Counted from the first letter of the stretch, positions 1-19,073 are shown. The stretch: 64,000 bases of DNA from an uncultured Candidatus Saccharimonadales bacterium (GCA_964467655.1 CAYXSN010000007.1:682-64681), one strand, 5' to 3'. Numbers and translations: made by a program. The notes: generated by a model not told the origin, from the sequence alone.

Positions 1-39
1 GGAGGGCAGCCACATCCCCACACCAAATGGGGCCTCCTG

Positions 40-2004
40 ATGAGTTTATTAATCGTCGGGATTTTGAGTGTGGGGCAGCCGGTGCGAGCAGGCACACCGG
101 GAGTGCAAGCCCCAATCGGGCCGCAGAGTGGCAGCGTGTTTACCGGAACATTCACGTTTAATACCTATATTTACTGCACCGCCGGCTATGAGTTTCCCAG
201 TTCATACTCAAGCAATCTGAACGGCACCCATGGCTTTGCCTTCTATGGGGCACCCGATGGTTCATTGCTACTGAGCATTGATGGTGGCGGTTTGATCCTG
301 CTTACCTCATGTGGCGACCCTTTCGGCGGCGCTGCCACCCACGTGGTTACCTATACCGTCACAAAAACCAACGGCGCGCCACCCACGCCCACGCCTACCC
401 CGGCACCTACTCCTACGCCCACCCCGACCCACACTCCTACACCCACGCCCCATGGTGGGGGAGGCGGCTCCACGCCGACACCCGCCCCCACGGCGACACC
501 GGCACCCGGCGCCGGACCAACTGCACCACTGCCACCAGGCCAGACGCCGACGCCCGCCCCCACAGCCACTCCAGTACCGGTTGGCGCTGGTACACCGCCG
601 CCAGCGGCGACCACGCTTGATCCGGTGACGGGCAAACAACAGCCCGCTGCTGCTACGACTCCCGCGGCTGCACCCATAACAACGGCGCCAGGGGGCCAGG
701 CAAGCGGATTAGTGAGCGCCCTAAAAGTGGCCGGCGTTTGGATGGTGAGACTGTTCATCTTGGTGCTGGTGCTGTGGCTCCTCGTCAAACTCGCCAGGCG
801 TACCAGTCTTGGCCAAGTAGCCGGCCGGTGGTTGGGTCCCGTGTGGCACAAACTGTGGGCCCCTATCTGGTTGCGCTGGCTCGAACCGCGGCTATTTAGA
901 TGGCGATATACTTGGCATCGACATCGCGAAGCCTTGAGCCGCCGCCTGAGCACCGCGAGCCACCATGTGCCGCGCACGTTTCGCAGCCGACTCAACTTGA
1001 GTCCGCGTCACCATAGTGGCCAAATGCTGCCGCACCACCACACATCATATCCGTCGTTAGCGCTGCTCATCATCGTAACGACAGTGTTGGCGGCCTCAAT
1101 GAGTTGGAGTAGCCGGGCGGCCACCACCACCCTTAATCTGACAGTGTTCGGACCACCACCAAGCAGTGGCTCAACCATTACGAGTCCAGCCGATGGCGCT
1201 GTGACGGCTACTTCGCCAATCAGCGTGTATGGCACGTGCCCCAGTGGGTTGCTCATCGAGATTTGGAGGGACGGCCTGTTCGCCGGGAGTGACTTCTGTG
1301 ATGGTAGCGGCTTGTTCTCGGTGCTTGTGACGCTCAATACTGGCGCCAACCACTTGGTCGCTCGCACGGCTGATGCTCTCGGTCAGTACGGTCCCGATTC
1401 GTCGTCGGTGACCGTCACGTATAGCCCGCCACCACCCACTCCAACACCGACCCCCAGTGCGTCACCGGCACCACTGACGCCAACGCCCCAACCAACCACC
1501 CGGCCGACCAGCTCGCCAGTGTTCCCAGTCCCTAAACCCACTTCAGTACCGGCGCCCGGCCCTTTGGTGCTTGACCCCGGCCGTCATTTTTACCAGACTG
1601 TCGAGCCGGGCACTCCAGTAGACTTTGAGCTGGCCGTATCCGGCGGAACGGCTCCTTACCGTGTAGCCTGGGATTACGGCGATGGTCATACAGAACAGAC
1701 AACTGCTGCTCAAGCCGGGCCGCTCAAGGCCACCCATAGTTACACCGCGGCCGGCGCTTACCAAGTAACGGTCAGGGTGAGGGACGCTACCGGACGGACA
1801 GCTCTCATCCAGCTGGCTGTCATTGTGAGTGGTCCTACAGGAGTGCCTACCAGTACGACACATGATGACGGCCTCCTGGGATTCGTCTGGCCACTACTTG
1901 TCTTAGTGGCGCTCATCGTTTTGAGCTTCTGGCTGGGGGAGCGACATAAACTCGATCAGGCCCGCCAAACGCTACCTCTTGACAGCCAACGTCATACCAC
2001 TTAA
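40..2004 (+). CDS. Secreted/surface protein with Pro/Thr-rich linkers, PKD-like repeat (WDYGDGH) and C-terminal TM anchor; reading frame open to window start so may be 5'-partial
   Basis: 654-aa ORF; signal-like N-terminus; PTPTPTP low-complexity linkers at ~nt 370-560 and 1430-1500; PKD-like motif; hydrophobic C-terminal segment followed by basic residues. Confidence 0.5.
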   Translation: MSLLIVGILSVGQPVRAGTPGVQAPIGPQSGSVFTGTFTFNTYIYCTAGYEFPSSYSSNLNGTHGFAFYGAPDGSLLLSIDGGGLILLTSCGDPFGGAATHVVTYTVTKTNGAPPTPTPTPAPTPTPTPTHTPTPTPHGGGGGSTPTPAPTATPAPGAGPTAPLPPGQTPTPAPTATPVPVGAGTPPPAATTLDPVTGKQQPAAATTPAAAPITTAPGGQASGLVSALKVAGVWMVRLFILVLVLWLLVKLARRTSLGQVAGRWLGPVWHKLWAPIWLRWLEPRLFRWRYTWHRHREALSRRLSTASHHVPRTFRSRLNLSPRHHSGQMLPHHHTSYPSLALLIIVTTVLAASMSWSSRAATTTLNLTVFGPPPSSGSTITSPADGAVTATSPISVYGTCPSGLLIEIWRDGLFAGSDFCDGSGLFSVLVTLNTGANHLVARTADALGQYGPDSSSVTVTYSPPPPTPTPTPSASPAPLTPTPQPTTRPTSSPVFPVPKPTSVPAPGPLVLDPGRHFYQTVEPGTPVDFELAVSGGTAPYRVAWDYGDGHTEQTTAAQAGPLKATHSYTAAGAYQVTVRVRDATGRTALIQLAVIVSGPTGVPTSTTHDDGLLGFVWPLLVLVALIVLSFWLGERHKLDQARQTLPLDSQRHTT

Positions 2005-2076
2005 GCTTGATGCATAAGCCCAAAACAGGCTTACCAAAACACTAAAACCAAACATAAAAAGAAAGCAATACGACTC

Positions 2077-3174
2077 ATGATCCGTACTTCTCGTACTCGC
2101 CGTATCCGCAGTGCCGGGCTCGCTCGCGCTTGGATAGCGGCTGTTTTAGTGGTCGGGGGATTGTTCGTGCCCTGGCTCAACGCGCAGGCGGCTACATTGT
2201 CCGCCGCATCCATCGCCCTATCCGACCCTCGTCCGAACACGCCGTCAGTGAATTACACGTTTACCGCCTCGAGCGTATCCACCGGCGGTCCAGGTTTGAT
2301 TCGTTGCATCAAGATGGTGTATGCCGATGCTCCCAGCGCCGGCTCAGTGCCCGCCGGCATGACAACAACGGGCGCAACCGTTAACACCGCTGGTACCAAC
2401 TATGTGCCGACCCCGGCCAGCTGGACCCTCAATGCGACCACGAACGGCACCCTGCAACTGACACTAGCCGGTGGCGAAACTCCCGCCAGTGGTACCGCCA
2501 GAACCGTGAGTATCAATGGCATCACCAACGGCAGCACCGCCAATACTGCCTACTTCCTGCGCTTCAATACCTATTCAAACACCGACTGCGCCACCGGTCC
2601 AGTTGATTCGACAGTTGTCCAGTTCATCATGACCAATGGCTCAACCTTGTCACTGACCGTCGACAACACCTTGACGTTTACCGTAAATGCTGTGGCCTCA
2701 GGTCAGACCTGTAACGGAGCTACCTCGACTGCGGCGTCAACTTCAACCACCATTCCGTTTGGTACCGTATCGCCGGCCTCAAACGCCATCGTCTGCCAAG
2801 ACCTCACAGCCTCTACCAACGCCACCAACGGCTACACCATCTACGCCCGCTATACAGCCGCCCCCACCAACACGCTGTCGCAGACCATTGACCCCGTCTC
2901 TGGATCAAACGCTACACCAGCCGCTTTCAGTGCTGCCGGAACCGAAGCATATGGGTACACTACCAACGATTTCACGCTGGGTACGGGCACTGCCGGCCGC
3001 TTCAACTCAAATCTCTGGGCTGCTATGACCACCAGCAACGCCGAAGTTGGCTATGAATCGGCTGGTGTGACCTCTACGACCTATCGCATCGGTCACCAGG
3101 TCGGCGTCTCTACTCTGACTCAGCCGGGTACCTACACCACGACAGTTATTTACACCTGTACGCCGGTCTTCTAG
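2077..3174 (+). CDS. Secreted cell-surface protein, WxL-like C-terminal domain (tandem paralog 1)
   Basis: 365 aa, signal peptide, Thr/Ser/Asn-rich; long blocks nearly identical to next ORF (YFLRFNTYSNTDCATGP...LVCQDLTASTNATNGYTIYARYTAAPTN); C-terminus TVIYTCTPVF resembles terminal TWTLxxxP of WxL domains with W to Y. Confidence 0.5.
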   Translation: MIRTSRTRRIRSAGLARAWIAAVLVVGGLFVPWLNAQAATLSAASIALSDPRPNTPSVNYTFTASSVSTGGPGLIRCIKMVYADAPSAGSVPAGMTTTGATVNTAGTNYVPTPASWTLNATTNGTLQLTLAGGETPASGTARTVSINGITNGSTANTAYFLRFNTYSNTDCATGPVDSTVVQFIMTNGSTLSLTVDNTLTFTVNAVASGQTCNGATSTAASTSTTIPFGTVSPASNAIVCQDLTASTNATNGYTIYARYTAAPTNTLSQTIDPVSGSNATPAAFSAAGTEAYGYTTNDFTLGTGTAGRFNSNLWAAMTTSNAEVGYESAGVTSTTYRIGHQVGVSTLTQPGTYTTTVIYTCTPVF

Positions 3175-3320
3175 GCTCAACTCGCAGAACGTTAATTGCC
3201 GGTCCATTTTCCCACAAGCATCTGCTCCCTATCTGAAGCATAAGGGGTTTGACAAGCGCGTGTTGTATTCGTTACACTTCTAGCAAGTACACATTAAAAG
3301 CTTGCTGGAGAAATAAAAAC

Positions 3321-4445
3321 GTGAACCGATTCACGCGTGCGGCCCATGCCTTGGGCGTACCGGTTGTCAAACCAAACCGTTCGTTTGCCGTCAAAACCAT
3401 ATCACTTGCGTACGTACTTGCTGAGATATTCTTGCCTGCCGGCTTGGCTCACGCTGCTACCTTCTCGAATGCCCGAGTGTCCTTGAGTGACCCTCGACCA
3501 AGTGCCACCAGTGTCGACTACACAGTGACGGTATCAAATGTCACCAGCGGTACCATTAAATGCATTAAGGCCGACTTCTCGTCCAGCCCCAGTTCATCGA
3601 GTGCCATCGGCAACGGCTTTACGGCTGCCAGCGCTACTATTACGGCTGCTTCGTCTACGCTCGTCAACAGCACATCGAGCGGCTGGACGGCCACGCCGGC
3701 TACAGATCAGATAACGTACACCAATACTACAGGCATCACTCCCGGTACCACCACTGGCGCCACCTTCGTAATTGCCGGCGTGACCAACTCAAGTGTCAAC
3801 AATACGTCGTATTGGTTAAGGTTTAATACTTATAACAATACCGATTGCGCTACGAGCCCCGTCGACAATACCACCATGGGCTTCATCTTTACGCAAGGCT
3901 CAACACTCTCACTGACAGTCGACCAAACACTTACTTTCACCGTGAACTCAGTTGCCACATCCCAAAGCTGCGGTGGGGGTACATCGACGAGCGGTTCGAC
4001 TGCCACCACCATTCCTTTCGGTACTGTCACAACGGCCGCAAACGGCCTGGTCTGTCAAGACCTCACAGCCTCCACCAATGCCACCAACGGCTACACCATC
4101 TTTGCCCGCTATACAGCCGCGCCCACCAACGGTACCGGCCAGACCATTGACCCAGTCTCGGGATCAAACGCTTCACCAGGCTCCTTCCCGGCTGCCGGCG
4201 CCACAGAGGCCTACGGCTACACCACCAATGACCAGACCCTCGGTACCGGCACCGCCAACCGATTCTACAATGGCAGCACCTATTCCTACGCTGCCATGAC
4301 GACAAGTAACGCCGAAGTGGCCTATGAGTCAGCCGGCGTCAGCTCCACCACGTACCGGATTGCCCACCAGGTCGGCATCACAGCACTGACCGACCCGGGT
4401 ACCTACAGCACGACAGTAATCTACACTTGCACTCCGGTATACTAG
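3321..4445 (+). CDS. Secreted cell-surface protein, WxL-like C-terminal domain (tandem paralog 2); start uncertain (GTG 3321 or TTG 3351; ORF opens at 3249)
   Basis: paralog of 2077..3174 over most of length; ends TVIYTCTPVY; signal-like h-region ending AHA. Confidence 0.5.
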   Translation: MNRFTRAAHALGVPVVKPNRSFAVKTISLAYVLAEIFLPAGLAHAATFSNARVSLSDPRPSATSVDYTVTVSNVTSGTIKCIKADFSSSPSSSSAIGNGFTAASATITAASSTLVNSTSSGWTATPATDQITYTNTTGITPGTTTGATFVIAGVTNSSVNNTSYWLRFNTYNNTDCATSPVDNTTMGFIFTQGSTLSLTVDQTLTFTVNSVATSQSCGGGTSTSGSTATTIPFGTVTTAANGLVCQDLTASTNATNGYTIFARYTAAPTNGTGQTIDPVSGSNASPGSFPAAGATEAYGYTTNDQTLGTGTANRFYNGSTYSYAAMTTSNAEVAYESAGVSSTTYRIAHQVGITALTDPGTYSTTVIYTCTPVY

Positions 4446-4446
4446 A

Positions 4447-5400
4447 TTGAAACGCTCCACCTCGCGTCACTTCTCTCTAGCGGCAGCGGCCTCCTTCACG
4501 GGGGCCCTGCTGTGGTTCGGTGGTACTGCCCAGGCGGCGAATAGCGCTAGTTTCCAAATCTCGCCGCCCACCGCCAATTATGCCGGAGACCCCGGCAGTG
4601 TCTCCAAGGGCACTATGAAAATAACCAACCTGACAGATACGCCTTTAGTTCTCAATGTCTCGAAACAAAATTTTGTGGCCAAAGGCGAAGAAGGTGAGAT
4701 AGAGCTGGTCGATAACGCTAACCCGCTTTATTCACTTGCTCCTTGGTTTAACATTCCTTCAGGTCAGGTTGAAGTGGGAGCCCGAGCTACCAAAGAAGTG
4801 ACATACACGATTTCGATTCCAGCCAATGCCGAGCCCGGCGGCCGTTATGGCTCAATTGTGTTTTCAACGATTCCACCGAAACTGCCTTCAGGTCAGTCGG
4901 GTGCCACCGTCCAACAAAACTTGGCCGGAGTGATCTTCCAGCGCATCAATGGTGATGCCAAGGAAGAACTCAAGCTCGAAAGCTTTACCACCGAGAAGAG
5001 TTTTTACGAGTATGCACCCATTAAATTTTTCACAAGGATTTCCAACCAGGGTAATGTCCACGAGAAGCCAACCGGCACGATTACCATCAAGAACTTTCTC
5101 GGTATGAAAGTGGCTGAGGTGCCATTAGACGAGCACTTCATTATCCCCGGTTCAACCCGACGCCTCACCAATGTTTGGCCTGACGGCGATACAAAGCCTT
5201 GGTTGATCGGCAAGTATACGGCTGAGCTCAAGGCTACCTATACCGGTGACCAGACGATCACTGGCACTACCACCTTTGTGGTGGTACCTTGGAAGCCTTT
5301 GGCGGCTGCCGGCACCGTTCTCATTGTGATATTCCTGGTCTTCTGGAAGGGTCGCAAGCGGCTGTCTCGCGCCGTTCGCATACTCGCCGGCCGCGAATAA
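4447..5400 (+). CDS. DUF916/DUF3324-like (CscA-like, WxL-interacting) cell-surface protein with C-terminal TM anchor
   Basis: 317 aa; TTG start immediately after upstream stop; signal peptide; beta-rich domain pattern FQISPP...KGTMKITNLTDTPLVLNV typical of DUF916; C-terminal TM helix followed by KGRKR. Confidence 0.45.
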   Translation: MKRSTSRHFSLAAAASFTGALLWFGGTAQAANSASFQISPPTANYAGDPGSVSKGTMKITNLTDTPLVLNVSKQNFVAKGEEGEIELVDNANPLYSLAPWFNIPSGQVEVGARATKEVTYTISIPANAEPGGRYGSIVFSTIPPKLPSGQSGATVQQNLAGVIFQRINGDAKEELKLESFTTEKSFYEYAPIKFFTRISNQGNVHEKPTGTITIKNFLGMKVAEVPLDEHFIIPGSTRRLTNVWPDGDTKPWLIGKYTAELKATYTGDQTITGTTTFVVVPWKPLAAAGTVLIVIFLVFWKGRKRLSRAVRILAGRE

Positions 5401-5420
5401 GCTTTGCTATAATACTCACC

Positions 5421-6836
5421 ATGAAGCCGTGGAGAGCTCAAGTAAATACTCAAAGGCTTGTCCGTCGGCCCAACCTATTTAGTTGGCGAGGTGCCTTGGT
5501 ATGTGCCGGCTTGTCGGCTCTGCTGGCTTCGGCGTCACACCAGGCCTCAGCCGATCTGATGCAAAGCTCGAATTTCAGGCTTGACCCCAATGTTGCCTCA
5601 AGCTTTGGTGGCACGGGCAGCTCAACCAATTATCAGATGTCGTCGACCGGTGGCGAACCCATTGTGGGCGCCGGGGCCAGTCAGAGCTTCAAGCTGGGCG
5701 GCGGTTACAATGCGCAGCTGCCACACTCCATCCAGCTGTCGGTTTTACCCAGTGGTACCGTGGCCGACTGGTCGCTCGATACTGGTACCGGTACGGCGGC
5801 CTACGACAATTCACTCACGGGCAATGACGGCATTTTACAAAATGCACCCACTTGGGTGACCGGCATTGTCAACCAAGGTATCCAGCTGAACGGTACCACG
5901 CAATACCTGTCGACAGGATTATCGAGTACCGCCCCCCAGGTGTTTACTATTGAGATCTGGTTTAAAACCACCACATCCAGTGGAGGTCGGCTGATGGGCT
6001 TCGGCAGTTCTTCGACAGGTGCCAGCGGTACCCTCGACAGGCATTTGTACCTCGATAACGCCGGCCACGTCATCTGGGGCGTGACTTCAAGTGGCAACCA
6101 GACGGTGACAACGACAGCCACATATAACGACGGGTCGTGGCATCATGTGGCCGCCAGCCTGGGCAGCGGCGGCCTGCTGCTCAACGTCGACGGTGTCCGT
6201 CAGGGTACCAATCAAAGCATCACGTCGGCTTCAAGCTATAGTGGGTACTGGCGCATCGGTTACGACAATTTGGCGGGCTGGACGAGCGCTCCCAGCTCAA
6301 ATTACCTAGCAGCTTCAGTTGATGAAGCGCGAGTGTATAACCGCCAGCTAACCGACCAGGAGATCACCAACGATTACGTCGCCGGGGCATCCAGCCTGCA
6401 AAACGCTTTCACCTTGCCCGATATTGTGCCCGGTACCTCGCAAACGTACTTGGCCGACGCCATCGTGCGCACCGAGGCAGCTGGTTATGATCTGTACGTC
6501 AACAAAACCGCCCCTGTTACCCACACTGATAACACCACCACCATCCCTGACATTTCTGGTAGCATTGCCAGCCCTTCAGCCTGGACCGAAGGTACCACCA
6601 AAGGCGTCGGCTTCACCCTCACCGCCGGTACCCAACTCGAAGGCTCATGGGGCACCAACCCCAATTACATGTATGCTGCGATTCCGTCATCGAGTACCTT
6701 ATTCCACTCACGGACCGGCGAAAACGCTGGCGTTGCCGAAGCCACCACGGTGCAATACCGGGCCGACACCAATAGCACCCAGAAGCAAGGCTTGTACTCA
6801 ACCACTGTCATTTACTCAGCGACGGCTAAGCCATGA
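5421..6836 (+). CDS. Surface protein with LamG/concanavalin-A-like lectin domain and WxL-like C-terminus
   Basis: ATG at 5421 (M45 of the 5289 ORF) gives a signal peptide; TATAAT at 5408-5413 just upstream; LamG_3-like segment (IEIWFKTT...WHHVAASLG...ARVYNRQLT); C-terminus STTVIYSATAKP similar to neighbours. Confidence 0.5.
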   Translation: MKPWRAQVNTQRLVRRPNLFSWRGALVCAGLSALLASASHQASADLMQSSNFRLDPNVASSFGGTGSSTNYQMSSTGGEPIVGAGASQSFKLGGGYNAQLPHSIQLSVLPSGTVADWSLDTGTGTAAYDNSLTGNDGILQNAPTWVTGIVNQGIQLNGTTQYLSTGLSSTAPQVFTIEIWFKTTTSSGGRLMGFGSSSTGASGTLDRHLYLDNAGHVIWGVTSSGNQTVTTTATYNDGSWHHVAASLGSGGLLLNVDGVRQGTNQSITSASSYSGYWRIGYDNLAGWTSAPSSNYLAASVDEARVYNRQLTDQEITNDYVAGASSLQNAFTLPDIVPGTSQTYLADAIVRTEAAGYDLYVNKTAPVTHTDNTTTIPDISGSIASPSAWTEGTTKGVGFTLTAGTQLEGSWGTNPNYMYAAIPSSSTLFHSRTGENAGVAEATTVQYRADTNSTQKQGLYSTTVIYSATAKP

Positions 6837-7735
6837 AGCACTGGCGTTTAACCATGGCCGGCCTGACCGGCGGCTTGGCCATGCTGTGCCTTTGGCCCGC
6901 GGCCGCCAATGCCGGCAGCACCAGCCTGCAGGTGGCACCGCTCCAGTATGAAGCCAAGCTTGAGTCCGGTAAAGTATCAACCGGCTTCATCGATGTAGCC
7001 AACCCCACAGGTACCACCATTACGATTCAATCGTCAGTCCGCGGTTTCAAGCAGACCGGTACCGATGGCGGCCTGGAATTTTTTGACGATCCTATTCTAG
7101 CCGCTGCCATCAAACCGGGCCTAACTGAATTTGCCTTGGGACCGCGCGAGGCAGTCAGGGTGGTGTTTAGCGTCGACGCGACTAAACTGCCTCAGGGCGG
7201 CGTCTATGCGGCTATCTTTTTCAATACGGCACCGCCCCGGGAATCGGCCAGCCATTCCTACATTGCCGAAATCGCCAATATTGGCACTCTACTACTGCTG
7301 ACCAACGGCGAAGGCAGTACCCACCAGGGTCAAGTCCAAGGCTTGATGCTTAAACACTGGCAATGGGGGAGTAGTCTTGAGGGCGCCTTCTCGTTTACCA
7401 ATACCGACCACACAGCCCAGCCCGTCGGGTTTAAGCCGCAGTTGAATGTGAGGGTCATGCCATGGGGTCACCGCCAGGACACCGAGACCGGCTTTGTGCT
7501 TCCGGGTACAACCAGGCAGTTTAGTTTCACGAGACCCGGCGCGTATTTTGGCCTGCTAACGGTGACCGTAGCCGATGCCGATACTGGCACTCATACGACC
7601 AGCTGGGTACTCGCCTGTACCGGCTGGTGCCGCTGGGCAGTACCTGTCGTCATTGTGGCCCTGGGTTATATGGTATACCACTGGCGGCAACGTCGCCGCT
7701 TGCCAGTGGCCAATGACCAGTCAGCCACTGATTAA
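6833..7735 (+). CDS. DUF916-like cell-surface protein with C-terminal TM anchor
   Basis: 300 aa; ATGA overlap with upstream stop; signal peptide; C-terminal TM plus RQRRR tail; similar architecture to 4447..5400. Confidence 0.4.
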   Translation: MKHWRLTMAGLTGGLAMLCLWPAAANAGSTSLQVAPLQYEAKLESGKVSTGFIDVANPTGTTITIQSSVRGFKQTGTDGGLEFFDDPILAAAIKPGLTEFALGPREAVRVVFSVDATKLPQGGVYAAIFFNTAPPRESASHSYIAEIANIGTLLLLTNGEGSTHQGQVQGLMLKHWQWGSSLEGAFSFTNTDHTAQPVGFKPQLNVRVMPWGHRQDTETGFVLPGTTRQFSFTRPGAYFGLLTVTVADADTGTHTTSWVLACTGWCRWAVPVVIVALGYMVYHWRQRRRLPVANDQSATD

Positions 7736-7792
7736 CATCTTGATCGCACCATAAGCGGGATGGTATAATCAAAGCCATAACCAAGGTTGTGC

Positions 7793-10700
7793 ATGGTGTA
7801 TCGCCGACAGCGAAGTGTCAGGGTATTGCAATACCTGGCTACCGCGGGCAGTATTCTGGCAACCCTTTTTGGCGTGCTTGAGACGAGCCAATCAGCCCAA
7901 GCCGCCCAGACAGTTCCATATCTGATAAACTTCCAGGGCCGCCTTACCAACAACGCAGGCAGCACCGTCGCCGATGGTTCATACAACATCAAGTTCACAC
8001 TGTATGACGCCTCCTCTGGCGGCACCAACCGTTGGCAAGCCAGCCGGGTGAGGGGCGCCTCGGATAACCGGGTGACGGTCACCAACGGTCTATTTAACAT
8101 CCAGTTTGGCGACGCCACCAAGGGCGACCCGGCCCTCAGCCCAAGTCTCTTTAATACCCAGACTTACGCCAATCTGTATCTGGAAGTCGAGCTGCCAATG
8201 CCTGCCACGGCCACGTGCTCAACCAATGGCTGCGCAGTATTCACCGAAGGTCCCATGACGCCTCGGCAGCGGGTCGCTAGCGCACCTTACGCCATGCAGT
8301 CAGATACACTTGACGGATTCGATAGCTCAGACTTTGGTCAGCTGGCCGCCGCCAACACCTTCACTGGCGCCAACTTGTTTGCCCCCACTACCAGCAGTAC
8401 TGTTGCTCTCACGGTGAAGGCCACCACTGCTGGCAGCACCAATAGCCTGGAAATCTTTGACTCCAGCGGCGTCCGCCAAGGTTATTTCAATGCCAGTGGC
8501 GGGCTCAACCTCAGTCAGGCCATCACCGCCCCCACCAGCACTAATACCATCAATAACCTGGTGGTTAACAACGGGGCCTTGTCAAATATTTCTGGCTACG
8601 TTCAAGGTTCGGGCACCTTTAGCCTGACGAGCACCACGGCTACAGGCAATGTGTTTGCCGTAGCCGACGCTTCGTTAACCGGCAACGGCGCCAACTTGAG
8701 CAATTTCAGCTTCACCAACGCCAATACCTCAGCCAGCGCCACCACCGTTAATGGCGTCCGCTCGGTCCCGACGGGTACCACAAACGCCAACGCCAACGCC
8801 AATACGCTCAATGCTTTTGAAGCTGGCAACGCTACGACTGCCAATAACAACACCATCAATGCCCTCAATATTGGTACCGGCTACACCAATTATGTGACTT
8901 CGACGAACTTGACGATCAATAGCTCAGGCGACATTACGACTGCGTTTACTCAGCTTGATGGCTCAACCACCACCAACGGCACTGGCACCAACTCCACCAG
9001 CATGACGCTTACGAGCGCCACTAATTTCAATATTGGCAACTACATCAGGGTAGCCAACTCGGCCGCCTGTACTACCGGTGGCCCCAATACCTGTTATGCC
9101 AAGATCACGGCCATCGCCGGAAATGTACTCACAATTACACCGGCTCTCACCTGGGCTACGGGTAGGGCAGTCGTTGAGTTTCATATCCCGGAAATTGGCG
9201 GACTTGACCTTACCCAAACCCTGACAAACCGCTACGGCCGCGGATACTTCATCGCTGGCGTTGCCACTGGTAACGGCACCACCTATTACAACGAGGACGG
9301 TATCGATACAAGTGCTTCAGATTTCAGTATCGTTCCCACAGTGACCAACCTGACAATTGGCAACTCGGGCACCACTGTGGCGGTTCCTGGTGCCCTGACT
9401 GTGGCTGGCCAATCAATCGTCAATGGTTCGGGCCAGATCAATGGTGCCCAACTCCAAACCGGTACGGTAGCTAACGCCGCACTGGCCAACTCGAGCCTGA
9501 CAGTCACCGCCGGTACCGGATTATCGGGCGGCGGTTCAGTCAGTTTGGGCGGTTCCAGCCCCGCTCTCAACGTGGTTTATGGTAGTACGAGCACCTCGGC
9601 CGTCCGCGGCGACACCGCCCTCACGTGCCCCGGTGGCACTGGTCAATTGTCTGGCGGCGGTACCAGTATTACGCTCGGATCGGGCGGTACCTGCGGCAAC
9701 ATTAGTATCTCGGCCACGCCTACCTTCACGAGTGTCACCGCCGGCACCTTCACTGGGAGCGGAGCCGTTAGTGTTGCTTCAGGCGGCACCAGTGCCCTGA
9801 CTTTGGACTCACTGAGTGGTGCTTTAGTCTTGGGCTCAAACACAGCTTCAGTCCAAAAATCGGGCACCGCTCTCTCAATTGACCTCAACAGCGCCTCAGC
9901 TAGTACGCTGACAGTTACCAACAGCGGTGCCGGTGTGGCCAGTCTCTCGGTGGAAGGTGGCCTCACCATCGGCAGCGGCACCGCCATCACGGTGGGCGCT
10001 AGCGCCGGCCAAAGCTCCACAGTATCGTGTGGCGCCAACCAGGCAGTCACGGCTGCTACTTTCACCGGTGGCGTGCTCACCACCGCGCCGAGTTGTAGTG
10101 CAATCGCCGGCACCGGCGCCACCACCACGCTTAATAACGTCGGTAGCACCGCCATTGGTGCCGACCTGTTGCCCGGCACCAACAACACCCGCTCCATTGG
10201 CTCAGCTAGTCTCGTTTGGGCGAATATGTATGCGGCTAATCTTGACGCTGGCACCACGACCACAGCCCTCACAGTTGGGACCGCTGGCACCACTACCGCC
10301 ATCACTATTGGTCGAAGTGGATTGCAAGTCAGTATTCCAGGGGGAGTATCTTCATCCGGGAACATTACCACCAGTGGCAATATATCCACAACGAGCTCTG
10401 GAACAATTACATCTGCCGGAGCTATCAGCGCTCCTACAGCTACAAACACCATTAATAATCTTGTAATCAATAATGGTGCGTTATCGAATGTGGGAAATAT
10501 TACCGGAGCGGCGGCCGTAACTTTGGCTTCAACCACCAGTGCTTTAACGCTAGATTCTGGGTCGAACGTATTGGTAGTTGCCGCCAATGACACTACCCTA
10601 CAGCGGACCGCCTCTGGATCCTATACCGTTGATTTAGTTGATGCTGGCGCCACTTCGCTGGCTGTGACCAACTCAAATGGCACCGGTGTGGCCAGTCTCT

Positions 10701-13700
10701 CGGTGGAAGGTGGCCTCACCATCGGCAGCGGCACCGCCATCACGGTGGGCGCTAGTGCCGGTCAAAGCTCCACAGTTTCCTGTGGCGCCAACCAGGCAGT
10801 CACGGCTGCCACTTTCACCGGTGGCGTGCTCACTACTGCTCCCAGCTGCGCCACTATCAACGGCACCGGCGCTAACACGACCCTGAGCAACCTCGGCACC
10901 ACAGCCATTACGGCCACGTTGCAGCCGGCCTCAGGTAGTAGTAACGCCATCGATCTGGGTACTGCCTCCACCAACCTCTGGCGAACCGGGTATTTTGGCA
11001 CCAGTGTCCAGAGCCCCAGCTACACTGGCACTGGCGCCGTCAGCGTAACTTCAGGCGGGGCAGCTGGCCTCACGCTACAATCAGCTTCGGGTACCGTCAC
11101 GCTTGGTACCAGCACCAACTTAACTGCCGCCGCCGGCTTAACTATCAACCCTACAGGCGCCAACGGCCTCAACCTGGGTACCGCCAACGCCAACGCTATT
11201 GCCATCGGTAACACCACCTCAAACCCCAGCATTAGCATCGACTCTGGCACCAGCGCCACCAACATCGGCGACACCGCCACCACCAAGGGCATCGACATCG
11301 GTGGCAACGACAACTCGGGTACCGACACCATTAGAATAGCCACCAACGCCACTGCTGCCGACGCTGTCACTATTGGCAGTACCAATGCCACCTCGCTCAC
11401 TATCCTGCAGGGTGGTACTCAAGCCACTGGTGGCATCCAGCTCAACTCAAATGTGGTAGCACTCACCGGTACCAACCCAACCATCACCAACACCGGCACC
11501 AACACGCTCACGATCAACACCAACTCCACCGGCCAGCTCAACCTGGGTACCAATGCCAGCGCCAAAACCATCCAGATCGGCCAGACCACTGCCGCTGTGG
11601 CTGATACCGTCAACATCGCCAACTCAGCGTTCTCAGGTTCTACTGCCACAGTGGCCATCGGCAATCTGTTGGGTGCTAGTGCCACCACCATTCAGGCCGG
11701 TACCGGCAACCTCAATCTCAACGTCGGCCAAGCCGCCTCGGGCGTGATCGTCAAACCGTCAGTTGATAGTGCGATCGCGTTTTCTATCAGGAACGCCGCC
11801 TCCAGCCCCATCTTCAATGTCGATACTACAGATACCAATCCCATTAGTATGAGCGGGTTTGAACAAACAGTGCTCACCAACTGGGCAGCGCTGTCTGGTG
11901 GTAGCGTTGCTCGTGACACCACCCAAAAATACGTTGGCTACTCATCGGGCAAGGTGACAGCCGGCACCACGGCCGGTGGCGGTATCTCTCAGGCCATCAC
12001 GCTCACGGTTTCAACCCAATACACTCTGTCGTTCTATGCCAAACTCGATAGCGCCTCGGCCGCTTTCACGACACTCCAAGCCGGCTACTCCAGCACCGGT
12101 GCCGTCGGCGGGGAAGTCGACTGTACACTTAACTCGAGTACGGTGATTACCACCGGCTGGAACCGTTACTACTGTACCTTCACCACCCCGGGAACCAACT
12201 CGGGCACGCCCTACATTTACATCCAGCACAACGACGCCACCAGCGAGGTCTTCTACGTTGATGCTGTCCAGCTCGACACTGGTAGTGTCTTGTCTCCTTA
12301 CGGATCAGGTCAGATCTCGCTCAATGCCAACATCAACTCGCCAGTCAACTTCCAACAATCCGCCAACTCCACCACGGCCTTCCAGATCACCAATTCAACC
12401 GGCCTCAACATCCTCAATGTCGACACGGTCAACTCGAATATTAATAACCTCATCGTCAGTCCAAGCCTTGAGACTAACACCACAGGGTGGGCCGCCCGCA
12501 CCGGTTGTACGTTTAGCCAAGACAACACGGCTGCCTACAATGGTTATTCTTCGGCCAAATGCGTGAATACCGCCACTGCCAACGCCGGCATGAACATCAC
12601 CAATACCACAGGCATTTTGCCAGCACTGGCCTCAAGCACCACCTACACCATTTCGTTCTATGCCAAGGCATCGCTGTATATGACAACCTTTGAGTTCGGC
12701 CGGGCTGACAACGGTTCAACCGACACCGCCTGCCTCACGGCCCAAACCTTAACTATTGGCGACTGGAAACGCTTCAGCTGTACCTTTACTACAGGTACTC
12801 TATCTGGTACACCATATGTTTACTTCAAACAAACCGACGCGGTCGCTCGCACAATCTGGATTGACGCCGTCACCCTGGAAACGGACGCCAACGCTTCGGC
12901 CAGCTACCGCGACGCCCGCTTGTCGCTGGGCAACGCCACTATCTCCAGTCCAGCGGTCTTTCAGACGAATACCAACTCAAGTACCGCCTTCCAGATTCAA
13001 AACGCCAGCGGAATCCAAGTCTTCAACGTGGATACAGCCTCAGACGCCAACCTGGTTGACAATGCCGGATTTGAGGTTAATTCAACCGGCTGGTCGGCCA
13101 TCAACGGTGCTACGGGCCTCATCCGGGATACGTCTAAAACCTACGTCGGTATTGCTTCGGGTAAGGTTACCACAGCGGTTACTGCCAACTCAGGTATGCG
13201 CTACACCTTTAGTTCGGCGCTACCCGCCGTCGCTGGCGTAGCCTACACAATCTCGGCCTATGTCCAGACCAGCGCTGCCGACGCCACGTTTGGCATGGGC
13301 TACAACAACGGCGCCGACACAGCCTGTACCGTCAGTCCCGCTGCCAGTGCCACAGTGCCATCCACCACCGGCTGGACCAGATTCACCTGCTCGACGCCCG
13401 TCAATACTACAGTTAACTCGGTCTACATTACATCTGGCACCACAGCCGTCACGCTCAACATTGATGCCGTCCGAGTGGAGCTCGGCAGTACTGCTACCGC
13501 CTATGGTGCTGCCAACATTAGTTTTAATGGTGTCTTTACCTCGCCGGTAGCGATCAGGAGTCCCAACGATTCCACGAACACCTTCCAGGTTCAATCTTCA
13601 GCTAACATCAATCTATTGACCATTGATTCCTTAAACAAAACGATCAGTGTTGGCTCGACCGTTACCGATACCAATCAGATTCTACTCCAGCTTGATTCCT

Positions 13701-14659
13701 ACGCCGCCGCCTCCCAAGCCATTACCGATACAGTCACCTGCTCATCGTCGGTTAACCCGGGATCGCTCTACTACAACACCAACACCAATGCCATCCGCAG
13801 TTGCATCAGTGGGGCTTGGGAAGACTTAGTGACTACTGCCGGCATGGGCATCCTCCTTTTTGGTGTGGTTCCTGATTCCGGGTTGGCACCGGGTGACCTG
13901 CCCGCCTTGCGAACCTCAGCCGTCACCGGCCCGTGCAAGGTTTCCTGGGCTACTACGACTACCGTCACAGTTCAACCCTGTGTGGCTTTCTCGGGCGGCC
14001 GCAAGATCATCGTCACGGGCGATACTACGCGCCAAACCATGACCACTCAGACCGTCACCATACCGACCGGTACAGCTAACGGTTATACCCATATTTGCCT
14101 CAACGCCGCCAATACCAGCCAGCCCAGTACGACCACGCTTAGCGCCACCGAAAGCGCCAATCTGCCAACGTTTAGTATTACCAGCCCCATACTATGCTTG
14201 GCCGACGTCAGATTAACTGCTGCCGGTACGGCCATTGCCAACGTGTTTGATACACGCACCTTTACGAATACCACCAAAGAATATGCAACCACGGCGGCAG
14301 CTACTTCAATCGGAGTGGCTGTGGTGCCCAGTACGACTGGTGTCGGCCTGCCGGCCGCCGCCAACGCCACCGCCCGCGGGATCGTGGTAGCCTCAAATGG
14401 TGCTGCCGCTGCGGCCGGTGTGCCCAACGCCATCATCGCCGTGGCTGGCCCGGTAGTGGCCAAAGCCTCGGCTGGTACCAACGCTGCCATCGTGACTATT
14501 GCTGCTACCACCGGGTACGTCTCCACGGGTGGCGCCGTCACGAACACCTATAGTGCGCTCGGTGTGTCGCGCAACACCTATCCGGCGACGGCCTGTACGA
14601 CCACAGCCAACGCCGTCAACTGTAACAACTCGCTGTTCTTTAATCTCAACTTAAGGTAG
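7793..14659 (+). CDS. Giant Ser/Thr/Gly/Asn-rich secreted surface protein (~2288 aa) with three CBM4_9-like carbohydrate-binding modules
   Basis: ATG at 7793 preceded by TGGTATAAT (7761-7769) and AAGG; signal peptide; three modules of form (N/S)xGFE...GW...YxGxxSxK...Y(T/S)(L/I)SFYAK at roughly aa 1330-1470, 1530-1680, 1740-1880; internal direct repeats. Confidence 0.55.
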   Translation: MVYRRQRSVRVLQYLATAGSILATLFGVLETSQSAQAAQTVPYLINFQGRLTNNAGSTVADGSYNIKFTLYDASSGGTNRWQASRVRGASDNRVTVTNGLFNIQFGDATKGDPALSPSLFNTQTYANLYLEVELPMPATATCSTNGCAVFTEGPMTPRQRVASAPYAMQSDTLDGFDSSDFGQLAAANTFTGANLFAPTTSSTVALTVKATTAGSTNSLEIFDSSGVRQGYFNASGGLNLSQAITAPTSTNTINNLVVNNGALSNISGYVQGSGTFSLTSTTATGNVFAVADASLTGNGANLSNFSFTNANTSASATTVNGVRSVPTGTTNANANANTLNAFEAGNATTANNNTINALNIGTGYTNYVTSTNLTINSSGDITTAFTQLDGSTTTNGTGTNSTSMTLTSATNFNIGNYIRVANSAACTTGGPNTCYAKITAIAGNVLTITPALTWATGRAVVEFHIPEIGGLDLTQTLTNRYGRGYFIAGVATGNGTTYYNEDGIDTSASDFSIVPTVTNLTIGNSGTTVAVPGALTVAGQSIVNGSGQINGAQLQTGTVANAALANSSLTVTAGTGLSGGGSVSLGGSSPALNVVYGSTSTSAVRGDTALTCPGGTGQLSGGGTSITLGSGGTCGNISISATPTFTSVTAGTFTGSGAVSVASGGTSALTLDSLSGALVLGSNTASVQKSGTALSIDLNSASASTLTVTNSGAGVASLSVEGGLTIGSGTAITVGASAGQSSTVSCGANQAVTAATFTGGVLTTAPSCSAIAGTGATTTLNNVGSTAIGADLLPGTNNTRSIGSASLVWANMYAANLDAGTTTTALTVGTAGTTTAITIGRSGLQVSIPGGVSSSGNITTSGNISTTSSGTITSAGAISAPTATNTINNLVINNGALSNVGNITGAAAVTLASTTSALTLDSGSNVLVVAANDTTLQRTASGSYTVDLVDAGATSLAVTNSNGTGVASLSVEGGLTIGSGTAITVGASAGQSSTVSCGANQAVTAATFTGGVLTTAPSCATINGTGANTTLSNLGTTAITATLQPASGSSNAIDLGTASTNLWRTGYFGTSVQSPSYTGTGAVSVTSGGAAGLTLQSASGTVTLGTSTNLTAAAGLTINPTGANGLNLGTANANAIAIGNTTSNPSISIDSGTSATNIGDTATTKGIDIGGNDNSGTDTIRIATNATAADAVTIGSTNATSLTILQGGTQATGGIQLNSNVVALTGTNPTITNTGTNTLTINTNSTGQLNLGTNASAKTIQIGQTTAAVADTVNIANSAFSGSTATVAIGNLLGASATTIQAGTGNLNLNVGQAASGVIVKPSVDSAIAFSIRNAASSPIFNVDTTDTNPISMSGFEQTVLTNWAALSGGSVARDTTQKYVGYSSGKVTAGTTAGGGISQAITLTVSTQYTLSFYAKLDSASAAFTTLQAGYSSTGAVGGEVDCTLNSSTVITTGWNRYYCTFTTPGTNSGTPYIYIQHNDATSEVFYVDAVQLDTGSVLSPYGSGQISLNANINSPVNFQQSANSTTAFQITNSTGLNILNVDTVNSNINNLIVSPSLETNTTGWAARTGCTFSQDNTAAYNGYSSAKCVNTATANAGMNITNTTGILPALASSTTYTISFYAKASLYMTTFEFGRADNGSTDTACLTAQTLTIGDWKRFSCTFTTGTLSGTPYVYFKQTDAVARTIWIDAVTLETDANASASYRDARLSLGNATISSPAVFQTNTNSSTAFQIQNASGIQVFNVDTASDANLVDNAGFEVNSTGWSAINGATGLIRDTSKTYVGIASGKVTTAVTANSGMRYTFSSALPAVAGVAYTISAYVQTSAADATFGMGYNNGADTACTVSPAASATVPSTTGWTRFTCSTPVNTTVNSVYITSGTTAVTLNIDAVRVELGSTATAYGAANISFNGVFTSPVAIRSPNDSTNTFQVQSSANINLLTIDSLNKTISVGSTVTDTNQILLQLDSYAAASQAITDTVTCSSSVNPGSLYYNTNTNAIRSCISGAWEDLVTTAGMGILLFGVVPDSGLAPGDLPALRTSAVTGPCKVSWATTTTVTVQPCVAFSGGRKIIVTGDTTRQTMTTQTVTIPTGTANGYTHICLNAANTSQPSTTTLSATESANLPTFSITSPILCLADVRLTAAGTAIANVFDTRTFTNTTKEYATTAAATSIGVAVVPSTTGVGLPAAANATARGIVVASNGAAAAAGVPNAIIAVAGPVVAKASAGTNAAIVTIAATTGYVSTGGAVTNTYSALGVSRNTYPATACTTTANAVNCNNSLFFNLNLR
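9932..10112 (+). repeat. Intragenic direct repeat copy 1 (~180 bp) within giant surface-protein gene
   Basis: near-identical to 10685..10865 (GVASLSVEGGLTIGSGTAITVGASAGQSSTVSCGANQAVTAATFTGGVLTTAPSC in both); offset 753 bp keeps frame. Confidence 0.8.
10685..10865 (+). repeat. Intragenic direct repeat copy 2
   Basis: see copy 1. Confidence 0.8.
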
Positions 14660-14661
14660 CT

Positions 14662-15162
14662 ATGTCGATGCTATCAGGCCGTCGTCGCATCATTGGCTGG
14701 GTGAGCGCCATGTTAGTATTTACCATCTTGACGGCTACAGGTATCGCACTGCTCGTAATGCGGCCGGTCCTGCCCAAGACAATCTCGAAGCAAATCACTT
14801 TCACACTGTTGGTACCGAGCCACGAAATCAGCCAGGTCCGTCAAACCGCCAAGTTTGACGGCTCGTTGGGGCAACTCAGCTACATTGTTAAAATCGGCCA
14901 AAACCAGATAACGGTCAGTGAGCAGGCGACACCCGAGAATTTCACTCTCGTACCACAGGCCTACGACAAAGTAGTTGAAGGCATGAAGCCATATGATTCA
15001 TTTGAGACATCATTAGGTAAGATTAGTATTGCCAAAGTTTCAGGCAAACAAACAGCCGTCACCAACACCAAGGGCACGTTGCTATTTGCCCAGGCTAATC
15101 AAGATATGTCAAGCGATGACTGGCGCAAGTTCTTCGCCCAGTTTGCAGTCGTCACGCAGTAA
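14662..15162 (+). CDS. Hypothetical membrane-anchored protein (single N-terminal TM)
   Basis: 166-aa ORF starting 2 nt after stop of the giant gene; N-terminal hydrophobic helix. Confidence 0.4.
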   Translation: MSMLSGRRRIIGWVSAMLVFTILTATGIALLVMRPVLPKTISKQITFTLLVPSHEISQVRQTAKFDGSLGQLSYIVKIGQNQITVSEQATPENFTLVPQAYDKVVEGMKPYDSFETSLGKISIAKVSGKQTAVTNTKGTLLFAQANQDMSSDDWRKFFAQFAVVTQ

Positions 15163-15190
15163 AACTTTGTGGTAAAACTCAATTCTTGTT

Positions 15191-17422: not shown

Positions 17423-17423
17423 C

Positions 17424-19073
17424 ATGATTTCGGCGCAGTTTTTAGGTATCAACGCTCATTTTGCAGTCAATGTAATGGCCAGTCTGGTGGCATTTGCCGT
17501 CTGTTGGCTGAGGTTTGATGCCTGGACGGTGCGACGGTCGCGAGCCGAACTCCTCAGCTGGGTTGGCTTTGCCTTGCTGACGACAGGCTTTCTGGTCTCG
17601 GGCTCAGCCTTGGCTGGCGGCAGTGGCGTAGCCGATATATTAATAACCATCAGTGTGTGGGCAAAACTAGCCGGCTTAGCGGCCATCACGACCAGCCAGC
17701 TACTCGAACCATTACAATCGGTGCCGGATATCTCAACTGACACCGACAGAATAAACCTAACGGCGTCAGCTAGCAGCAAAACTAAGCCCAAAAAACCACG
17801 CCACACAACCATGCCAATCTGGTTGCCGCCAACCCTGAGCGGTAGTGGCTTAACCGCCACGAGCCTAGCCATCACCTTATTGACGGCACTCGTGGCTGGA
17901 CTGTATTGGCGCCGGGCCACACAAGGTCTTGAGCGACATCTCAAACCGCTGGCTTATGGGTTCCTGGTATGGGCCGCCGCCGAGGCTGCTCTGGCCGCCA
18001 CCACGTTGCCAGCCGGGAATAACCCATTCGTAGAGAGGACTCTGGCGGTCTATGGGCCGGTCTGGTGGTTGGGCTTGGCCGCCAGCCTCACCGGCTCGCT
18101 CATGATGGGCCGTTGGGTGTGGTCGTATCTTACAAAGCGGTTGGTGAGCCAGCTATACATGGCCTTGATCGCCCAGGTAATTGTCATATTTCTGGTAGTA
18201 ACAGCCAGTTTTACGTATCTCATGTTGCGAGATGTCAAAAATGCCCAGCTCGGTGACCTGCAAACAGCCAGCCGGGTACTCGATTATGCTATTGCGAGTC
18301 GCCAGGCCCAAAACCAGGCCGAAGCCCAAACGGCGGCGGCTTCAAGCAACGTAGCCGCAGCTGTGGCAGCCCGAAACCGGGTTGGTCTGGCCGCCAGCCT
18401 CACTTCGTTCTACAGTGAGCACAAAGTGAGCAGTTTACTTGTGACCGATGCGGCCGGAGTAGTGCTGTGGCGGGCCGAGGACCCCGAACGCTATGGTGAT
18501 TCGGTCTCAAGTGACGCTCTCATCCGGCGGGCGCAGGCGGGCCGGACGGCTTCGAGTGTTACTGTGAGTTCAGGTGTATCGGCGCCGGCAGTGGCGCTCA
18601 CGGCCGTCAGTCCGATCACCGGCAGCGACGGCCTCGTGATCGGTACGGTCACACTTGGCTTCGACGTGAGCGAAGGTTTTGTTGATGGCATCGAGGCTTC
18701 CACCGGCCTATCGAGCACGGTTTACGGCGGTCACACCCGGGCCGCCACCACCATCAAGGACGCTCGGGGCAACCGGACGGCCGGGGTGAGTATGGCCGAT
18801 GCCACCATCAACTCGGAAGTGCTCGAACACAACCATTCCTACACCGGCACCACCCTCATCAATAATCGTCAGTACCTCACGGCCATCACACCACTGGTGA
18901 ACATTGATGGCCAACCCGTTGGCATGCTCCAAGCTGCCCGTCCAGCCACAGATTTATTTATGGCAGCCGGTCACTCACTGCAACTCATGCTTTTGGTAGC
19001 CAGTGTCTTGCTGCTGTGCGCGGCAGTTCCGCTGTTCAAGCTGGCTAAACTGATTGAACGGCAGCTGCGCTAA
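17424..19073 (+). CDS. Polytopic membrane protein with extracytoplasmic double-Cache-like sensor domain, no output domain
   Basis: 549 aa; start 2 nt after upstream stop; ~7 TM helices, then ~270-aa soluble region with Cache-like character, final TM. Confidence 0.4.
   Translation: MISAQFLGINAHFAVNVMASLVAFAVCWLRFDAWTVRRSRAELLSWVGFALLTTGFLVSGSALAGGSGVADILITISVWAKLAGLAAITTSQLLEPLQSVPDISTDTDRINLTASASSKTKPKKPRHTTMPIWLPPTLSGSGLTATSLAITLLTALVAGLYWRRATQGLERHLKPLAYGFLVWAAAEAALAATTLPAGNNPFVERTLAVYGPVWWLGLAASLTGSLMMGRWVWSYLTKRLVSQLYMALIAQVIVIFLVVTASFTYLMLRDVKNAQLGDLQTASRVLDYAIASRQAQNQAEAQTAAASSNVAAAVAARNRVGLAASLTSFYSEHKVSSLLVTDAAGVVLWRAEDPERYGDSVSSDALIRRAQAGRTASSVTVSSGVSAPAVALTAVSPITGSDGLVIGTVTLGFDVSEGFVDGIEASTGLSSTVYGGHTRAATTIKDARGNRTAGVSMADATINSEVLEHNHSYTGTTLINNRQYLTAITPLVNIDGQPVGMLQAARPATDLFMAAGHSLQLMLLVASVLLLCAAVPLFKLAKLIERQLR

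Follow-up and report, generated by a model that had tools for sequence, protein, structure and literature searches.

A probable Pam-type pilus operon in an uncultured Saccharimonadales bacterium, with chaperones homologous to the WxLIP proteins

Gene content of the locus

The window analysed here, a stretch of 64,000 nucleotides from an uncultured Candidatus Saccharimonadales bacterium (GCA_964467655.1 CAYXSN010000007.1:682-64681), carries close to its beginning a cluster of genes for exported proteins that very probably encodes a Pam-type pilus, a filament recently described from the Patescibacteria, or Candidate Phyla Radiation (CPR). A first-pass annotation had drawn attention to five co-directional genes at 2077-7735 and had read them as a cell-surface cluster of the Csc/WxL kind. 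All five open reading frames (ORFs), A to E, are found on the + strand of this interval, and the pattern that they form lies far beyond chance, the C-terminal motif of the secreted proteins being kept in 120 homologues and the gene order in about 17 related genomes. The functional unit exceeds these five genes, as the co-directional U (40-2004) upstream and F (7787-14659) downstream also belong to it, giving an operon of seven genes in the order U, A, B, C, D, E, F. The features of the operon, with the evidence for each in brackets, are as follows.

40..2004, + strand: U, probable PamR-like terminator/anchor protein, 654 residues (NCBIfam NF058578)
1123..1149, + strand: candidate N-terminal donor strand of the PamR-like domain, TTTLNLTVF, residues 362-370 of U (resemblance to the pilin linker)
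2077..3174, + strand: A, probable two-domain pilin, 365 residues (NF058581, AlphaFold2)
2632..2688, + strand: inter-domain linker of A, TNGSTLSLTVDNTLTFTVN, residues 186-204, candidate donor strand (conservation, monomer model)
3249..3278, + strand: promoter-like site between A and B, TTGACA-18-TACACT (consensus scan, 10/12 matches)
3321..4445, + strand: B, probable paralogous two-domain pilin, 374 residues (GTG 3321; ORF open from 3249)
3891-3947, + strand: linker of B, TQGSTLSLTVDQTLTFTVN (motif coordinates)
4447..5400, + strand: C, membrane-anchored two-Ig-domain chaperone, PamC/PamD-like and WxLIP-like, 317 residues (AlphaFold2, Foldseek, PF06030, hhalign)
5421..6836, + strand: D, LamG-bearing subunit, candidate adhesin, 471 residues from the likely start ATG 5421 in an ORF of 5289-6836 (PF13385, C-domain homology)
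6833..7735, + strand: E, second membrane-anchored chaperone, 300 residues (homology to C)
7787..14659, + strand: F, giant secreted Thr/Ser-rich protein, 2290 residues, with three CBM_4_9 modules (PF02018)

Two of the junctions are tight, with C starting one base past the stop codon of B and the start of E overlapping the stop codon of D (ATGA). B likely starts at GTG 3321, which has GGAG about 10 nucleotides upstream. The consensus scan for promoters and terminators stayed near background (11 promoter-like sites, with 7.5 expected), which makes the site between A and B weak evidence for a promoter.

The secreted subunits and their C-terminal domain

A and B are tandem paralogous secreted proteins (57% identity, E 7e-114) with signal peptides, that of A ending AQA/AT. 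Their C-terminal ends, ...GTYTTTVIYTCTPVF in A and ...GTYSTTVIYTCTPVY in B, share the form GTY(T/S)TTVIYTCTPV(F/Y), which is near-invariant in the 120 database homologues and whose last part, TVIYTCTPV(F/Y), had been correctly picked out in the first-pass annotation. Behind its signal peptide A consists of an N-terminal beta-sandwich, a conserved linker and a C-terminal domain of the Pam pilin type, and its AlphaFold2 model (predicted local distance difference test, pLDDT, 85.9) contains two beta-sandwich domains. Residues 189-195 (STLSLTV) form the sole internal low-confidence, non-strand segment of this monomer model, and the linker in which they lie, T-N-G-S-T-L-S-L-T-V-D-x-T-L-(S/T)-F-T-V-N, is near-invariant across 59 A homologues that average 63% identity.

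The assignment of the C-terminal domain comes from NF058581 (CPR_Pam_pilin_C), which A matches in the NCBIfam scan at 7.6e-6 over model positions 2-148 of 148 and which is matched by 52 of the 59 members of the A family, a weak but systematic signal. An iterated profile of the C-domain ties A, B and D, at E 1e-30 to 1e-37, to pilins with scores above the curated threshold; B is found at E 1.5e-32 and D at 3.9e-32. Across the loci this profile collects 158 subunits in 69 of 72 loci, and within positions 1-20000 of the window the domain is carried only by A, B and D. All 158 hits end no more than two residues from the stop codon, a strictly C-terminal position that recalls the way in which classical Pap/Fim chaperones grip the C-terminal carboxylate of the pilin.

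The NCBIfam models NF058578, NF058579 and NF058581 derive from the preprint of Troman et al., in which two filaments of the Saccharimonadia parasite Ca. Mycosynbacter amalyticus were solved by cryo-electron microscopy (cryo-EM) (Troman et al. 2026, 10.64898/2026.03.03.709456). PamA and PamB are two-domain proteins in which a strand of the inter-domain linker is donated to the incomplete C-terminal immunoglobulin-like (Ig-like) domain of the neighbour, and this donated linker is the most conserved region (10.64898/2026.03.03.709456). The pam operon also encodes PapD/FimC-like chaperones with C-terminal membrane helices, PamC and PamD, the pilins PamE and PamT, and PamR, which is predicted to terminate and anchor the pilus by placing an N-terminal strand into the last pilin; a giant protein resembling a tail fibre is a conserved neighbour (10.64898/2026.03.03.709456).

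The third subunit, D, is made up of a signal peptide, an N-terminal region of S-x-(F/Y)-x-L repeats, a Laminin_G_3 domain (PF13385, 3.5e-21) and a C-terminal Pam-type pilin domain. Its last 170 or so residues share 28% identity with the C-terminal domain of A (E 2e-8) and it terminates in GLYSTTVIYSATAKP, which bears out the earlier remark that the LamG protein ends in the same kind of C-terminus. D has no STLSLTVD-type linker between the LamG domain and the C-domain. The combination of LamG with the C-terminal domain is kept as ORFs of 454-564 residues in about 17 loci, and the LamG subunit is a concrete candidate for the host-binding component and might serve as the adhesin.

A and B have no Pfam match, and searches of the PDB sequences with A, C and the profiles A1-A3 gave only a marginal match, to 9jdi 'BtpiA' at E 0.021. 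As Thr and Ser together make up 25-32% of A, B, D and F, these could be taken for lineage-specific threonine-rich surface proteins unrelated to any characterised system, an outcome that the first-pass annotation had itself allowed for should no WxL or DUF916 relationship appear. We give this reading almost no credence, as it is contradicted by the NCBIfam Pam matches, the conserved synteny, the confident two-domain fold predictions and the strong homology of the chaperones with WxLIP proteins; on the DUF916 side, structure and profile searches speak directly against it. The marginal match, to 9jdi_C (182 residues), was the best PDB match of profile A3, which represents small CPR subunits, and lies around a ...TV.T....GY.L.I... 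motif; no literature on BtpiA was found.

The membrane-anchored chaperones

C and E are homologues along their whole length (24% identity, E 2e-15), and a CPR chaperone profile recovers E at E 3.6e-76. Both end in a transmembrane (TM) helix followed by a basic tail, with the helix at residues 285-300 and KGRKR in C and at residues 268-284 and RQRRR in E. The AlphaFold2 model of C (pLDDT 85.2) contains two Ig-like domains and a long C-terminal helix at residues 282-313, and its top Foldseek matches are the E. faecium WxLIP 9i1y (1.5e-12) and 9i25, 'WxLIP ... bound to long WxL' (4.3e-12), with the chaperones CfaA, YadV, Caf1M, CsuC and FimC ranked below them at 1e-9 to 1e-7.

PF06030 (WxLIP_PGBD, equivalent to DUF916) matches C at 2.5e-4 with 21.5 bits, below its cut-off of 27.3, and 39 of 62 C-family members, the best at 4.9e-9; PF11797 has no direct match on C. 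When the C family was aligned by hhalign with six canonical Firmicutes WxLIPs the result was 98.4% (E 6.8e-15) over 241 columns that include both domains, and the reversed control gave P 0.009 over 16 columns. The canonical WxL clusters were taken from plasmids (pXO1, E. mundtii, E. faecalis, L. plantarum, Terribacillus and Paenibacillus). The relationship of C and E to the WxLIP (DUF916/DUF3324) proteins of Firmicutes and Actinobacteria is one of true homology, and here the earlier description of the 317- and 300-residue proteins as DUF916/DUF3324-like, with TM anchors and KGRKR/RQRRR tails, was right. The chaperone/WxLIP family is large, numbering 11,886 cluster representatives (50% identity) at E<=0.001 in a global protein search. 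Its DUF916 members are already annotated on plasmids of Actinobacteria, beside WxL-like proteins without Trp, so that an occurrence outside Firmicutes, which had been put forward as a distinction of this cluster, does not set it apart.

The link between Pam chaperones and WxLIP appears to be unreported. The Pam preprint (10.64898/2026.03.03.709456) makes no mention of WxL, DUF916 or DUF3324, the WxLIP paper (PMC10599100) none of chaperones, ushers or donor strands, and no paper joining WxL with CPR was found in the literature searched, a body of work to which the paper behind 9i1y and 9i25 does not belong.

Resemblance of the C model to the FimC, PapD, Caf1M and CfaA class of chaperones might instead indicate a classical chaperone-usher pilus, and that of the A model to two-domain Ig-like adhesins and pilins of Gram-positive bacteria a pilus assembled by sortase; the Foldseek search with the full-length A model yielded only generic two-domain Ig-like adhesins with low TM-scores, and its 50 top matches include no WxL chain. 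Either is very improbable, as no usher or sortase family was found among the cluster proteins and the downstream neighbours scanned, the chaperones are membrane-anchored and not soluble, the subunits end directly in a beta-strand motif, and CPR bacteria have no outer membrane (10.64898/2026.03.03.709456). An LPXTG-type sorting signal is absent from every ORF of at least 80 residues in the window. With chaperone-usher pili the system has in common the two-domain Ig-like chaperone fold, subunits that are presumed to be incomplete Ig-like domains joined by donor-strand exchange, and an adhesin that combines a lectin with a pilin domain, as in FimH or PapG. It differs in having neither usher nor outer membrane and in tethering its chaperones to the cytoplasmic membrane, and the Pam donor strand is an internal inter-domain linker, not an N-terminal extension, within a fibre that is extended and not coiled (10.64898/2026.03.03.709456).

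The PamR-like protein and the giant neighbour

U matches NF058578, CPR_pilus_PamR ('pilus system RbmA-like protein PamR'), at 2.4e-60 over model positions 23-292 of 297, and a PKD domain was also found in it by the Pfam scan. Its PamR region spans residues 345-643 and includes a C-terminal TM helix at residues 615-632. The N-terminal module that precedes this region contains a small Cys-containing domain, a Pro/Thr linker of about 130 residues, a TM segment at residues 233-249 and an Arg/Trp-rich loop, and ends with a second TM segment or signal-anchor at residues 339-356. Directly past this internal signal-anchor, and followed by a Pro-rich spacer, comes TTTLNLTVF, which resembles the pilin linker STLSLTVD; judged by its sequence it is a candidate donor strand, which would fit the N-terminal PamR strand predicted by the preprint. 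In at least 12 related loci the fusion forms one ORF of 641-768 residues; the closest complete genome (L009) has it divided over two ORFs, and in loci whose PamR matches score highly the protein stands alone, at about 310-330 residues. A jackhmmer search started from the PamR region strayed into the N-terminal module fused to it and was used qualitatively only.

F matches PF02018 (CBM_4_9) in three stretches at 1.2e-19. Its PDB sequence matches fall on the CBM region only, and searches of PHROGs and PDB returned nothing else. A giant ORF comes next after the second chaperone in at least eight related loci.

Distribution and synteny

The chaperone profile, scanned against a single genome for each GTDB species, yielded 70 loci, nearly all titled as Patescibacteria/CPR or carrying no phylum label, with two non-CPR titles (Azotimanducaceae and Balneolia); the named homologues of A and C belong to Ca. 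Saccharimonadia or Patescibacteria. M. amalyticus itself was not returned, so that the type system enters the comparison through the NCBIfam models. Four loci found through their chaperones have neighbouring pilins that reach 118-162 bits with NF058581 (cut-off 55), and in one such locus PamR scores 399.5 bits against a cut-off of 300. The chaperones of loci with cut-off-passing pilins in turn match C by tblastn (2e-47 for L025 and 5e-24 for L066).

Two kinds of gene order can be distinguished. In type 1, common to the window and to about 17 soil-type Saccharimonadia loci, a PamR fusion is followed by two or three pilins, a chaperone, a LamG-pilin, a second chaperone and often a giant protein. 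Type 2, a small subunit, a chaperone and another small subunit, is found in most other CPR loci, in lineages that include the oral Saccharibacteria and the Kaiser-, Nealson-, Nomura-, Zambryski- and Moranbacteria. The operon of the window is an ordinary one for its lineage and a divergent relative of the recently described Pam pilus kind. An N-terminal segment of D, SFKLGGGYNAQLPHSIQLSV, resembles the N-terminal motif of the type 2 small subunits, and because D has this segment and is missing the linker, a position at the tip or within the shaft of a fibre is possible for it.

The loci L032-L076, which are most of the CPR loci outside Saccharimonadia, hold a minimal cassette of a small subunit of about 240 residues, a chaperone of about 340 and a small subunit of about 260. 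This cassette is widespread in Paceibacteria/Parcubacteria and oral Saccharibacteria, where a protein longer than 1200 residues frequently lies next to it. Pam pilins have been reported mainly in Saccharimonadia and Microgenomatia (10.64898/2026.03.03.709456), and against this narrower range the spread of the minimal cassette suggests that the Pam system may be broader.

A Pam-type pilus and its possible assembly

The reading that we favour, with a probability of roughly 0.85, is that these genes form the operon of a Pam-type pilus in Saccharimonadia (Patescibacteria/CPR) of soil or wastewater, and that assembly would dispense with an usher and use donor-strand exchange. With the system of M. 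amalyticus it shares a host among the CPR Saccharimonadia, two-domain pilins that are exported by Sec, keep a conserved inter-domain linker and finish in a Pam domain, a pair of PapD-like chaperones that both carry a membrane helix at the C-terminus, the lack of an usher, an RbmA-like PamR with a C-terminal membrane helix, and a giant neighbour resembling a tail fibre protein. It differs in the LamG-bearing subunit that stands in place of a PamT-like single-domain tip pilin or a pilin of the 55-kDa size of PamA, in a PamR extended at its N-terminus by a fused module that brings further membrane spans, and in that the ORFs scanned beside the cluster, which cover part of the window, showed no ATP synthase genes.

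Several observations weigh against this interpretation. The window pilins and PamR fall below the curated NCBIfam cut-offs, A scoring 26 bits against the 55 of NF058581 and U 204 bits against the equivalog cut-off of 300 of NF058578, which places them on a divergent branch and not among the equivalogs. B and D have no direct match to NF058581 at E<=1, none of the seven cluster proteins matches NF058579 at the same threshold, and a PamT-like single-domain tip pilin was not found among them. The Pam structures 25PZ and 25QA were not matched in the PDB sequence searches and are absent among the fold-search hits listed. F, a conserved neighbour, corresponds to the 'tail fibre-like' protein of the preprint and is a putative pilus component. 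For this organism, filament formation and donor-strand exchange are both inferred from M. amalyticus.

Following the model of M. amalyticus, assembly could proceed as follows. All of the operon products would be exported by Sec, and C and E, tethered in the cytoplasmic membrane via their C-terminal helices, would donate a strand to the incomplete C-terminal Ig-like domain of every subunit and thereby cap it. The linker of an incoming subunit (STLSLTVD...) would then displace the chaperone strand in donor-strand exchange, so that the fibre would grow from its base, with no usher or outer membrane involved. D would supply a lectin-like LamG module for binding a glycan of the host-cell surface. 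Growth would end once the N-terminal strand of U (TTTLNLTVF) has entered the last subunit, and U would anchor the fibre through the TM helix at its C-terminus.

Relationship to the WxL proteins

The first-pass annotation had proposed a Csc/WxL surface complex. In such a complex A, B and D would be divergent WxL-domain proteins held non-covalently at the wall, C and E would stabilise them, and the LamG and CBM domains would capture carbohydrate, with no filament formed. Part of the case for it stands. C and E are true WxLIP homologues, the composition of the cluster parallels the 'small WxL + large WxL + WxLIP' layout of the known clusters, the LamG and CBM domains suit glycan binding, several short motifs are collinear with those of WxL proteins, and a Pfam-positive WxL protein of Paenibacillus has Tyr for the second Trp. 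The subunits, however, have no detectable WxL domain. PF13731 (WxL) is unmatched at E<=1 by A, B and D, by 59 A-family members and by 82 small CPR subunits (0 of 141 relatives). Alignments by hhalign of the pilin C-domain with WxL, run in five ways with shallow or iterated Pam profiles, with or without the linker and in local or global mode, gave P 0.002-0.05 over 14-25 columns (best P 0.0017 over 14 columns), and reversed, shuffled and unrelated beta-domain decoys score alike. No homology of the subunits is claimed, because these scores are no better than those of the decoys. The 9i25 entry, which also holds the long WxL, is absent from the top 50 Foldseek matches of the A model.

The homologue search seeded with the Paenibacillus WxL protein found only seven close relatives, too shallow for a good WxL profile, and WxL queries against the PDB sequences did not recover the WxL chain of 9i25. 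Since the subunits match the Pam pilin domain and lie beside the gene of a PamR homologue, and since the homologous M. amalyticus proteins form filaments by cryo-EM, a non-covalent wall-anchoring system is not the best reading of the cluster. We regard a wall-held, filament-free complex as unlikely and favour the membrane-anchored donor-strand pilus.

The resemblance between the subunits and WxL proteins is one of collinear short motifs only. At the N-terminal strand or linker, A has STLSLTVDNT and the L. plantarum WxL GTLSLSVDNT; a short motif reads IPFG in A and LSFG in WxL; at the first 'WxL' motif A has CQDL...NGYTIYA and WxL VSDLRGTNAGWSLTV; and the C-terminus of D, GLYSTTVIYSATAKP, can be set beside that of the Terribacillus WxL, GNYSTTVTWELVQAP. 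The positions of the WxL motifs read G-Y-T-I and I-Y-T-C in the subunits, and the two Trp-x-Leu motifs are not present. Within the A family the Cys position of IYTC can hold C, M, L, I or A, which makes it hydrophobic like the Leu of WxL. The Pfam-positive WxL protein of Paenibacillus ends ...GSYKALFTYKATSGI, with Tyr replacing the second Trp, so that the literal motif is not strictly required even inside the WxL family. The earlier proposal that IYTC stands for the terminal TWTL is thus plausible at the level of the motif and falls short of proof; the same holds for homology of WxL and Pam subunits, which is plausible from these sequence motifs and unproven.

Related arrangements occur on plasmids. 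In the Actinobacteria, DUF916 genes adjoin genes of secreted proteins with WxL-like C-termini on a Clavibacter plasmid (L001, 6095-7909) and a Streptomyces plasmid (L002, 4873-7819). These C-termini lack the second Trp (...GDYSSTITLSLFE and ...GDYAGTLTLTLL), which suggests that the literal WxL motif decays outside Firmicutes; one of the neighbours is a GH43 + ricin protein with a weak PF13731 match (E 0.0084). On the Firmicutes plasmids pXO1 (L079, 77943-79704), Terribacillus pT1 (L008) and that of Cohnella (L005), cassettes of WxL and WxLIP lie inside blocks for conjugation, type IV secretion or Tad pili, with CpaF/VirB11, CagC, VirD4, TrbL and TadA as neighbours, a context that may indicate a function in mating-pair or surface contact.

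In an AlphaFold prediction the beta-sandwich of WxL is completed by a strand of WxLIP (Hassan & Williamson, PMC10599100), and the N-terminal strand of WxL is suspected to rearrange (Hassan & Williamson, PMC9772566). A completing strand of this kind is the principle of donor-strand complementation by a chaperone. The Csc clusters, in which CscA is the WxLIP and CscB and CscC are WxL proteins (Siezen 2006; Hassan & Williamson 2022, 2023), share further features with the window: a homologous membrane-anchored two-Ig-domain protein, a cassette of one WxLIP-type protein with at least two secreted subunits whose shared domain is always C-terminal, and one large subunit with N-terminal binding modules. 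They differ in that the window subunits are unrecognisable as WxL by Pfam and profile-profile comparison and lack the two Trp, in that the window has a PamR anchor and no LPXTG-bearing CscD-like protein, and in that WxL proteins are described as bound to peptidoglycan and not as filamentous.

We tentatively raise the possibility, to which we assign somewhat less than even odds, that the Pam pilus and WxL/Csc are two branches of one ancient usher-less system of single-membrane bacteria, with a membrane-anchored chaperone, strand complementation and homologous subunits. The 'WxL' strands may then correspond to ...GYTIY... and ...VIYTC..., and the N-terminal strand of WxL to the Pam donor linker. 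If this is true, WxL proteins would be donor-strand-complemented subunits able to form short fibres and not simple wall-bound monomers.

Genomic neighbourhood

From 1 to 16000 the GC content is 0.55-0.61 and the GC skew -0.1 to -0.2, compared with 0.43-0.54 and a skew of about 0 in the rest of the window; the high GC and negative skew fit Thr/Ser/Ala/Pro-rich coding on the + strand. At 15191-17422 lies the gene of a 743-residue secreted protein with fn3, Big_13 and CarboxypepD_reg-like beta domains and a C-terminal thioredoxin-fold domain of the redoxin/AhpC-TSA type, which, speculatively, might serve disulfide formation of the Cys-containing pilins. The region directly downstream of the pilus cluster, 17424-26521, encodes a Cache-domain sensor protein, two HisKA_7TM histidine kinases (one with PAS domains) and two receiver-only response regulators, and these could regulate the surface cluster.

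Further along, the region 26570-30000 holds tRNA-Phe and tRNA-Gly followed immediately by a large serine recombinase gene (26700-28433, - strand), and the GC content falls to 0.47 at 28-30 kb; this may be a mobile element integrated at a tRNA site. A LOOT RNA (Rfam RF03000, 76.6 bits against a gathering threshold of 46.4), which belongs to a class of small RNA motifs without known function, is located at 48620-48731 on the - strand.

Significance

CPR bacteria are obligate epibionts whose attachment to host cells is largely unexplained. To the Pam systems the window adds a divergent soil-type operon, with a LamG subunit, a PamR that carries an extra membrane module and no PamT. The homology of the chaperones ties together two surface systems that have so far been described apart: on one side the Pam filament of the CPR, whose structure has only recently been solved, and on the other the WxL/Csc clusters of the Firmicutes, which occur in lactobacilli, enterococci, Listeria and the Bacillus cereus group and have long lacked an explanation. 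For the latter it suggests a mechanism, strand complementation by a tethered chaperone, and for Pam pili it suggests an evolutionary origin among single-membrane bacteria.

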